Positions 50,796 through 52,561 of a stretch of DNA of 64,000 bases are shown here, piece by piece; position 1 is the first letter of the stretch; each line of letters starts with the position of its first letter. Below the pieces are notes generated by a model. It did not search any database. It had not been told where the DNA came from and saw only the letters and a program-made list of their open reading frames with translations. A program made the translations under genes and the position numbers. The DNA comes from an uncultured Candidatus Saccharibacteria bacterium (lineage in GTDB: Bacteria > Patescibacteriota > Saccharimonadia > Saccharimonadales > Saccharimonadaceae), in assembly GCA_947302975.1 (NCBI GenBank), contig CAMYXA010000002.1:26627-90626 (forward strand). Direction: 5' to 3'.

Positions 50796-51386
50796 ATGGC
50801 AGAAATTTCCATTGAACAAATCAAAAAACTCAAAGAGCTCTCTGGCGTTGGTTTGACCGATGCCAAAAAAGCTCTTGTCGAAGCCGACGGCGATTTCGAC
50901 AAAGCTCTTGATGCTATGCGCAAAAAGGGTCTCACCAAAGCTGAAAAACGTGGTGACCGTGAAACTCGCGAAGGTCTTATCGATTCTTACATCCACGACG
51001 GCCGCCTCGGTGCCATCGTCGAAGTAAACTGTGAAACTTCTTTCGTTGCCAAAACCGACGAATTCAAAACTTTGGCTCACCAAATCGCCATGCAAGTTGC
51101 TTCCATGAATCCACTTTATGTCTCTGAAGAAGACATCCCAGAAGACGTCAAAGCCGCCAAGATGAAAGAACTTGAAGAAAACTTCAAGGGTCCTGAAAAC
51201 ATGAAAGAGCAAATTCTTGCTGGTCAAGCCAAGAAAGCATTTGCCGACAAGGTCCTCATGAACCAACCATTCATTTTGGACGACACCAAGACAGTTGAAC
51301 AATTCATCAAAGAAGCTATTGCAAAGACTGGTGAAAACATCACTATTCGCCAATTCAAGCGCATCGAGCTCGGTGTCACTGAATAG
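50796..51386 (+). CDS. tsf: Elongation factor Ts (short form)
   Basis: IKKLKELSGVGLTDAKKAL, EVNCETSFVA motifs. Confidence 0.97.
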   Translation: MAEISIEQIKKLKELSGVGLTDAKKALVEADGDFDKALDAMRKKGLTKAEKRGDRETREGLIDSYIHDGRLGAIVEVNCETSFVAKTDEFKTLAHQIAMQVASMNPLYVSEEDIPEDVKAAKMKELEENFKGPENMKEQILAGQAKKAFADKVLMNQPFILDDTKTVEQFIKEAIAKTGENITIRQFKRIELGVTE

Positions 51387-51397
51387 TTGATTTTACT

Positions 51398-51588
51398 CGT
51401 AAAGCTCTAGGAAAGTATTGAATAATTGACTTAGACTTTTGTAAAAACTACAACTATACACGAAGTTCATAAAACAAAATTGAAACCTCCCTACGGGGAG
51501 GTTTCTTGTTTTATTCACTCGGTATAGCTGTATTTTTTACAATGTCTAAATCTATAAATATTATTCAATACTTTCCCAGAACTCTACG
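51398..51588. repeat. 191-bp imperfect palindrome (long hairpin)
   Basis: Arms 51398-51491 and 51496-51588 around loop TACG; outer 29 bp match at 26 positions. Confidence 0.85.
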
Positions 51589-51780
51589 GAAATAATTAAC
51601 TCTGTGCAGTGGGGGGTTGATTTTTCTTTTTAAACCCCTAGAATGTCTGTGGGTTGGAGAAATTTTATTTTGCGACTAAATATAGATCCCCGAACTCCAG
51701 GGGGATTTATTCGCGGCAATTCTAGATAGCTAGGCTAAACCCCCTAAATTGTACCTAGAAAAACAAAAAAGGAGGTTTAA

Positions 51781-51858
51781 ATGATAGTATTGGAAATCCA
51801 TTTCAAACTTACATTACGGCCTAAAATAAAAAAGATTACTCTCCAAACAGAAGAGTAA
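51781..51858 (+). CDS. 25-aa peptide MIVLEIHFKLTLRPKIKKITLQTEE; candidate type I toxin
   Basis: Not in the ORF track; SD AAAGGAGGTTTAA-ATG; upstream promoter TTGATT-16-TAGAAT (51617-51644); anti-SD at 51736-51745. Confidence 0.45.
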   Translation: MIVLEIHFKLTLRPKIKKITLQTEE

Positions 51859-51896
51859 TCAACCAAACCCAGATAGGTTTCTAGAGCCTATCATTA
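51828..51896 (-). ncRNA. Candidate ~70-nt antisense RNA overlapping the 3' end of the peptide ORF
   Basis: Minus-strand TGGTATAAT at 51903-51911; terminator stem 51834-42/51852-60 followed by a U6 tract. Confidence 0.45.
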
Positions 51897-52015
51897 ATGA
51901 TAATTATACCATAACTAAAATATAGCAACACATCAAATAGTAGCCAATTATTCAATACATTCCAAATATCCCTCAATATCATGTTATAATATACCTTATA
52001 ACAATAGGAGTTATA

Positions 52016-52561
52016 ATGTTTGACACAAGTGAAGATCGTAAAAAAATGGAAGCCGTCATTGAACGTTTCAAAGACGAAATGAAAAAGGTTCGCACCGGAC
52101 GTGCTCACCCAGATATGCTTTCAATGATCAAGGTTGAAGCTTACGGTCAGTTTATGCCTCTAAATCAGGTTGCCAACGTGACTGCAGCTGATGCAACTAT
52201 GCTTGTAATCACCCCATTTGATCCAGCCAATATTCAGGCCATTTCAAGCGCCATCCGCGCCGATCAAACTCTCGGACTCAATCCAGCCGACGATGGTCGC
52301 ATTGTTCGTGTGCCAATCCCAGCTTTAACTGAGGAACGCCGCAAGGAAATCGTAAAAAACGCATCCGAAAAAGTTGAAAATGCTAAGGTCGCCATCAGGA
52401 ACATCCGCGAAGATGCTAGAAAAGCCATCAAAGCCGCAACTGATCTTTCTGAAGACGTCAAAAAACGTGCCGAGAAGGATATTGATGATCTCACCAAGGA
52501 ATTCAGCGACAAAGTCGATACTGAGTTCAAGACAAAGTCAGACGAGATAATGAAAATTTAA
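52016..52561 (+). CDS. frr: Ribosome recycling factor
   Basis: KVRTGRAHP, YGQFMPLNQVANV, PALTEERRKE, AKVAIRNIR motifs. Confidence 0.97.
   Translation: MFDTSEDRKKMEAVIERFKDEMKKVRTGRAHPDMLSMIKVEAYGQFMPLNQVANVTAADATMLVITPFDPANIQAISSAIRADQTLGLNPADDGRIVRVPIPALTEERRKEIVKNASEKVENAKVAIRNIREDARKAIKAATDLSEDVKKRAEKDIDDLTKEFSDKVDTEFKTKSDEIMKI

Follow-up and report, generated by a model that had tools for sequence, protein, structure and literature searches.

A mobile peptide and antisense RNA cassette in gut Saccharibacteria with the architecture of a type I toxin-antitoxin system

The window analysed here, a 64,000-nucleotide stretch of DNA from an uncultured Saccharibacteria bacterium, contains two plus-strand genes, tsf (50796-51386) and frr (52016-52561), with a gap of 629 bp between them. 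This gap houses a compact cassette comprised of a gene for a small peptide and, facing it, a predicted gene for an antisense RNA (Table 1). The source genome is 673 kb in size, assembled in 18 contigs, and 91% complete. An initial annotation had read the locus as a small-peptide/antisense module with the layout of type I toxin-antitoxin systems, and all of the elements it named are found where it placed them. The comparative analysis described here upholds that layout through evidence of coding selection, covariation at the Shine-Dalgarno (SD) sequence, and a conserved antisense promoter and terminator, and it places the module in a larger family.

Table 1. Positions of the cassette and its predicted elements in the window, and of a divergent cassette elsewhere in the source genome
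Feature	Position	Strand	Description
Cassette (~300 bases)	51611-51911		Peptide gene and facing antisense RNA gene
mRNA promoter	51611-51644	+	Conserved GGGGTTG block; -35 TTGATT (51617-22), 16-nt spacer, -10 TAGAAT (51639-44); consensus scan
Predicted mRNA 5' end	51651-51661	+	GGGTTGGAGAA; almost invariant; predicted pairing with A/C-rich linker 51861-51871
Leader hairpin	51672-51714	+	P1 51672-75/51711-14, GCGA/TCGC; P2 51680-91/51700-10, ATATAGATCCCC/GGGGGATTTAT
Leader motif	51720-51728	+	TTCTAGA(TA); invariant columns in leader and 3'-half alignments
Anti-Shine-Dalgarno	51736-51745	+	TAAACCCCCT; pairs with 51770-79, 9/10, in MFE folds
Shine-Dalgarno region	51770-51779	+	AGGAGGTTTA
Peptide ORF	51781-51858 (stop included)	+	25 aa, MIVLEIHFKLTLRPKIKKITLQTEE; ATG at 51781
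Antisense terminator, hairpin T	51828-51860	-	Stem 51834-42/51852-60 and U6 (51828-33); terminator by consensus scan
Hairpin L	51872-51892		Stem GATAGG/CCTATC; conserved loop TTTCTAGAG; antisense RNA loop CUCUAGAAA
Antisense promoter	51903-51911	-	Extended -10 TGGTATAAT; window copy
Predicted antisense RNA	51828-51896	-	~69 nt; 5' end inferred from -10, 3' end from terminator
Divergent cassette	G000 contig C4:3790-4110 (locus L104:1280-1600)		Outside the window; promoter block and 5' end as in the family, GGGGGTTGATTT...GGGTTGGAGAAAATTTTAG

The cassette belongs to a family of at least 40 distinct, diverged copies, the hosts of which are Saccharibacteria or unbinned metagenome contigs and the sources of which are chiefly the guts of ruminants and other animals. 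When the spacer was compared with relatives by blastn, two homologous copies were identified at unrelated sites in G013, a genome of the same genus. Across the genus, the 5' motif GGGTTGGAGAAnTTTTAnTTTGCGA was found in 16 of 369 genomes when up to three mismatches were allowed, as compared with a single match for the reversed control pattern. A looser pattern spanning the promoter and 5' end (GGGTTG-N26-38-GGGTTGGAGAA) gave 43 matches in 31 of the 369 genomes, or approximately 8% of the species in the genus, with a maximum of three matches per genome and no match for its reversed control. We also searched 185,579 prokaryote species, represented by one genome each, with the exact leader pattern GGGGGATTTAYNCG-N5-9-TTCTAGATA. 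All 31 of the resulting loci are in Saccharibacteria MAGs, assigned to 'Candidatus Nanosyncoccus' and other Saccharibacteria from goat, sheep, water-buffalo and other samples, and no genome contains more than three. Metagenome contigs contributed 11 further copies, including one almost identical to the window copy.

A covariance model of the 3' half of the cassette (R1) identified a second, divergent cassette in the source genome itself, on contig C4; under stricter filters, the model found no copy in 150 other genomes representing 120 genera of the order. The C4 cassette differs in its leader, which lacks TTCTAGATA, and has the SD sequence GGGAAGGAGATTATG, a 28-aa peptide (MSLELKILKFKIKLSVRRSKTKKVTSRN), a terminator stem GTGACTAG/CTAGTCAC following A6, and TGATATAAT on the minus strand. 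It is also present in genome G247, and the family is therefore wider than the strict-pattern counts indicate. Several copies are located only ~20-1200 bases from contig ends (G321:C2 and C35, G028:C25, G202:C23, G168:C12 and G148:C5/C11), as is expected of a repeated element. This location suggests that the repeated cassette breaks MAG assemblies and that the copy numbers are hence underestimates. Judged by these sequence comparisons, the cassette is a real, conserved, multi-copy family of gut Saccharibacteria and not a chance arrangement.

The family is mobile, and the cassette between tsf and frr is an insertion. The tsf-frr spacers of nine relatives are 19-156 bp in length, as compared with 629 bp in the window, and consist of a terminator hairpin, the frr promoter and an SD sequence. 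The site is empty (56 bp) in G013 despite the two cassettes that this genome carries elsewhere, and the 629-bp spacer is common only to the window, G247 and one metagenome contig. Between the window and its G247 orthologue, the cassette (51611-51925) has no differences in 315 positions, as compared with 18 in 591 for tsf, 78 in 546 for frr and 14 in 224 for the adjacent non-coding spacer; the window cassette is under strong constraint. Other copies occupy spacers between core or housekeeping genes that differ among copies, adjoining genes for SmpB, an RF-type release factor, NusA, a Mur ligase, Dus, a DHH-family (RecJ-like) protein, a deaminase and the DNA polymerase III alpha subunit. A Pfam search of eight neighbour proteins identified no integrase or transposase, and no inverted or direct repeats common to the cassette copies were seen. 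The exact family pattern had no match in IMG/VR viral contigs, and a full copy had no blastn match in plasmid and phage collections.

The surroundings of the window copy have features of their own. Directly 3' of tsf lies an imperfect palindrome of ~215 nt (51385-51601), the tip of which is occupied by the tsf terminator (51482-51505). The palindrome is missing from the 19-156-bp spacers of the nine relatives, occurs only in G247 and one metagenome contig in addition to the window, and is more diverged between the source genome and G247 (14/224) than is the cassette (0/315). In addition, a 17-22-nt motif, ATTATTCAATAC[T/A]TTCC, is directly repeated on either side of the cassette, at 51560-51576 and 51947-51963, 387 bp apart, and recurs in inverted orientation at 51410-51426 within the left arm of the palindrome, giving three matches where 0.2 are expected. 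The repeat suggests that the cassette landed inside the palindromic element or came together with it.

The 25-codon ORF that the initial annotation had recognised in the window has counterparts throughout the family. In nearly all of the ~40 distinct copies, an SD sequence and an ATG at proper spacing precede an ORF of 24-29 codons. The encoded peptides are of a main type, MEIEFYFRFKL(R)RKPKTKKVTLVVEDEx, and a second type, MFIEFNFVFRFGSKTKKITIRIEW. For codons 2-20, which lie upstream of the terminator stem, in-frame pN/pS is 0.33 (pS 0.71), as compared with 0.91 and 1.11 when the same columns are read in frames +1 and +2. Pairwise differences in these codons number 1233, 1113 and 1980 at the first, second and third positions, a third-position excess, and synonymous changes are numerous (TTT/TTC, CTN/TTA, CGN/AGG and CCN). 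This pattern of substitution shows selection at the protein level, and we take the ORF to be really coding on this evidence. The last codons, which lie within hairpin T, have a pN/pS of 0.67, with differences of 565, 297 and 718 by codon position. Conservation of the C-terminus (KK-V/I-T...E-D/E-stop) is partly imposed because RNA structure and the U-run of the antisense terminator occupy this region. The view that peptide conservation is a mere by-product of RNA structure was rejected for the N-terminal 20 codons, where off-frame pN/pS is near 1, and is true in part for the 6-9 C-terminal codons that form hairpin T.

As had been proposed for the window peptide, the family is devoid of a transmembrane helix; none is present in 26 peptides, and the best 19-residue Kyte-Doolittle mean is 0.48. 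The hydrophobic moment of the N-terminal segment is 2.3 at the beta period as compared with 0.7 at the alpha period, in agreement with the alternating strand pattern noted earlier. The peptide is amphipathic and charged, and its likely fold is similar to a beta-hairpin, with two strands joined by a Lys/Arg/Pro-rich turn and with acidic ends. Six family peptides compared with Pfam, NCBIfam and PADLOC at E-values up to 10 matched no family.

The message that would encode this peptide appears to be heavily structured. Its proposed promoter (51617-51644) lies exactly where it had first been placed and was also picked by a consensus scan, in which promoter-like sites number six as compared with 2.8 expected by shuffle and terminator-like sites number five as compared with 0.5. 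The invariant 5' end of the predicted transcript, GGGUUGG, pairs with the A/C-rich linker that separates hairpins T and L in the MFE folds of 21 of 26 diverged mRNAs, and the SD sequence is paired with the anti-SD region in 18 of the same folds. The linker sequence itself is variable among copies. The duplex of 5' end and linker has a mean energy of -10.9 kcal/mol, as compared with -7.2 kcal/mol for composition-matched shuffled linkers, and in each of the 27 copies evaluated its energy is lower than the shuffle mean.

Within the leader, the hairpin originally described at 51686-51706 is present and forms the inner part of the longer P1/P2 stem. In an alignment of 27 leader sequences, 97% of the cells in P1 and P2 are paired, as compared with 42-65% in slid controls. 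Many of these pairs are G.U wobbles that can form on the plus strand only, where the other strand would have A.C, and compensatory changes occur at three pairs. The window leader represents a minimal form with a short tip, and most copies add a covarying apical stem, P3. The sequence GGUGCGGUG, often in a loop region, is kept on the 3' side of this variable stem in most copies (e.g. L016, L017 and L020), where the stem around it covaries, and is missing from the window copy. There is also a possible mini-hairpin, CTAG...CTAG/CTTGG, after TTCTAGATA, the register of which is ambiguous and which was left unscored.

Sequestration of the SD sequence, which the initial annotation had derived from the pairing of nine of ten bases in the window, is borne out both by the MFE folds and by covariation among 40 distinct copies. 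An anti-SD of TCTCC is accompanied by GGAGA in nine of nine copies and C(C/T)CCC by GGAGG in 28 of 30. Two cases have U opposite G, and in no copy does C stand opposite A. The change is present in both peptide types and therefore arose more than once. The fold of the 247-nt mRNA, in which SD is paired to anti-SD, has a z-score of -4.8, and no plus-strand terminator with a U-run was found 3' of the mRNA. Taken together, the structure of the leader and SD region is predicted to block translation.

The minus strand carries a predicted small RNA gene with its own promoter and terminator. An alignment of the 3' half of 30 copies contains three hairpins (T, L and P), with compensatory changes at 21 of 27 pairs. 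The intrinsic terminator that had been read in the window, a 9-bp stem followed by U6, coincides with hairpin T and was recognised by the consensus scan as well. Across the family this hairpin comprises eight pairs, several with compensatory changes, and has its U-run on the minus strand only. The U6 corresponds to Lys-Lys codons on the plus strand, and the stop codon of the ORF is inside the stem. Hairpin L, also noted initially, has a stem that covaries and an invariant TTCTAG in its loop; on the antisense RNA this loop, CUCUAGAAA, includes a YUNR-type CUAG. The leader motif UUCUAG is the same as that in the loop of hairpin L and is thus complementary to the antisense loop (UCUAGAA), which would therefore have two possible contacts on the mRNA, the hairpin L loop and the leader UUCUAGA at 51720-26. 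Hairpin P, which contains plus-strand G.U pairs, spans the antisense promoter and can therefore form in the mRNA alone.

The extended -10 element reported for the minus strand of the window has a homologous and more complete promoter in 25 of the 30 aligned copies, namely TTGAC(T/G/A)-17/18-TATAAT, which agrees with the consensus at 11 of 12 positions and whose distance from the loop is constant. Within the -10 hexamer only positions 3 and 5 vary, and these are under the least constraint in a sigma-70 -10 element. The window copy is without the -35 (TTGACN) and without hairpin P, both of which are present in most copies. The predicted antisense RNA would be 90-100 nt in length in other copies. 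A 72-nt antisense stretch has a fold z-score of -4.4. At permissive Rfam thresholds, no match to the module was obtained in three other copies (E up to 0.1), and the window gave chance-level matches only.

A small number of copies have decayed. In L013 and L014 (genomes G089 and G098) and, independently, in L110 (G147), the anti-SD, SD and start of the ORF have been lost and hairpins T and L and the antisense promoter are retained, so that these copies resemble an 'orphan antitoxin'. Over 510 nt the sequences of L013 and L014, which come from separate species-level genomes, are 100% identical. Elsewhere, L042 is frameshifted, and L027 and L038 have lost the stop codon. Loss of the peptide ahead of the antisense gene would be expected if the peptide were harmful, and these few cases are only a hint in that direction.

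From its architecture, distribution and pattern of decay, we infer that the cassette is a compact, horizontally mobile element that functions in the manner of a type I toxin-antitoxin pair, a reading that we consider somewhat probable. The model presumes that both strands are transcribed, that the two RNAs interact, and that the peptide is toxic to some target. A sigma-70 promoter would generate an mRNA of ~250-390 nt starting at GGGUUGGAG. This mRNA would be closed and inert for translation, held by pairing of its 5' end with the A/C-rich linker that follows the stop codon, by the long leader hairpin, and by the C-rich anti-SD lying over the SD. The convergent promoter would produce an RNA of 70-100 nt with a 5' hairpin exposing the loop CUCUAGAAA and an intrinsic terminator; this RNA would be the complement of the 3' UTR and the final ~10 codons, with a loop that also matches the leader UUCUAGA. 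A loop-loop contact followed by duplex formation might then leave the message silent or cleaved. Should the antisense RNA drop, the message would open and an amphipathic, beta-hairpin-like peptide of 24-29 residues could slow or stop growth.

Several observations sit less easily with this model, among them the missing plus-strand terminator with a U-run and the part of the C-terminal conservation that the terminator stem imposes. Almost all known type I toxins have a transmembrane helix and the family peptide has none, so that the hydrophobic, membrane-spanning peptide typical of type I systems is missing here. The window copy, moreover, keeps an intact ORF without the antisense -35 and hairpin P, for which a weak or non-toxic peptide would be as fitting an explanation as the use of the extended -10 promoter. 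The missing helix and the weakened antisense promoter beside an intact ORF both favour the reading that the cassette encodes a non-toxic micro-protein under cis-antisense control. Its role would be benign (the Lys/Arg-rich turn might, for example, bind to nucleic acid, to the ribosome or to the cell surface), and the cassette would spread or persist through this benefit and not through addiction. The peptide is charged and like no known toxin, and in most copies the ORF is intact and under purifying selection. However, the patchy presence of the cassette in ~8% of the species of the genus, in multiple copies and at unrelated sites, fits a selfish module better; the decayed copies drop the start of the ORF and retain the antisense gene; and triple silencing by clamp, anti-SD and antisense RNA is typical of harmful products, as in hok/sok, aapA1/IsoA1 and bsrG/SR4. 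We therefore regard a benign micro-protein as unlikely, while giving it serious weight.

An element that acts through its RNAs, with both structured RNAs functional (e.g. as a sense/antisense pair on other targets) and the ORF serving incidentally or as a ribosome landing site, is difficult to reconcile with the amino-acid selection indicated by an in-frame pN/pS of 0.33 against ~1 in other frames and by the many synonymous changes, or with an SD and start codon at proper spacing in nearly all copies. Its appeal lies in the very strong conservation and covariation of the RNA structures, in the invariance at the nucleotide level of UUCUAGA, GGGUUGGAG and, in many copies, GGUGCGGUG, and in the 0/315 differences between two species, a degree of conservation beyond what the peptide by itself would require. 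We judge such an element to be quite improbable. Nor do we give credence to a fortuitous array of promoter-like and hairpin-like sequence in an AT-rich spacer. Promoter-like matches are indeed only ~2-fold the shuffle expectation, but ~40 diverged copies with conserved and covarying elements, together with the lack of any match to the reversed control, have already refuted this explanation.

If the toxin-antitoxin reading is correct, RNA-antitoxin addiction modules would persist in the reduced genomes of epibionts. [quoted passage not shown] The initial annotation knew of no type I system in these organisms, and our search of the literature (full text, with most subscription journals outside its coverage) likewise found no report tying type I toxin-antitoxin systems to Saccharibacteria or the CPR. 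More tentatively, and with somewhat less than even confidence, we propose that the cassette represents the first type I toxin-antitoxin family of the CPR and a new kind of toxin, a cysteine-free amphipathic beta-hairpin of ~25 residues with acidic ends and a Lys/Arg-rich turn in place of a membrane helix. Under this proposal, a single antisense loop would recognise two identical UUCUAG sites, one in the 3' hairpin loop and one in the 5' leader, and the antisense RNA would compete with the 5' end of the mRNA for the 3' linker. The family may thus define a new structural class of small, non-helical toxin. With ~40 natural variants and clear covariation, it also offers a good model of mRNA locking and antisense recognition. 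Standard annotation overlooks such cassettes because their ORF has fewer than 30 codons, which matters for the annotation of thousands of Saccharibacteria MAGs.

In its relation to known systems, the family is new and, with a peptide that departs from the membrane-helix toxins, would be an atypical member of the type I class to which its architecture corresponds. Peptide and RNA profile searches found no homology to the known type I families (Fst/Ldr, Hok/Gef, TxpA/BsrG and AapA, and their Rfam RNAs). A transmembrane helix is usual in type I toxins but not obligatory, SymE and RalR being exceptions. The closest layouts are found in the convergent systems bsrG/SR4, txpA/RatA, bsrE/SR5 and yonT/SR6 of Bacillus subtilis, which overlap at their 3' ends and encode hydrophobic membrane peptides. 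The cassette shares with these a small ORF and a (here predicted) small RNA that converge with overlapping 3' ends, including the end of the ORF, a structured leader that is predicted here to limit ribosome access, and chromosomal copies with a patchy distribution. It differs in having no sequence or family relationship to them (no Rfam, Pfam or NCBIfam match), in its charged, beta-periodic peptide without a transmembrane helix, and in an antisense loop with a second match, to an invariant site in the 5' leader.

A second point of reference is par of the Enterococcus faecalis plasmid pAD1, in which RNA I, the Fst mRNA, is countered by the antisense RNA II and a YUNR U-turn loop is thought to start recognition. 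Convergent transcription through one terminator hairpin, a YUNR loop, and two regions of contact between antitoxin and mRNA, one of them 5', are common to both, the transcription and the contacts being predicted for the cassette. The second contact of par involves direct repeats flanking the start codon in the 5' translation-initiation region, whereas that of the cassette would be a 7-nt motif upstream of the anti-SD. In the cassette, moreover, a U-run follows the terminator on the antisense side alone, no relationship links the peptide to Fst, and the host belongs to another phylum. The plasmid R1 system hok/sok and the Helicobacter pylori system aapA1/IsoA1 both keep their full-length toxin mRNA translationally inert through long-range 5'-3' pairing and SD sequestration, and the cassette mRNA is predicted to be locked in the same manner. 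There is no homology to these systems and the kind of peptide differs; the antisense RNA there overlaps the 5' part of the message, whereas that of the cassette would overlap the very 3' end that pairs with the 5' end.
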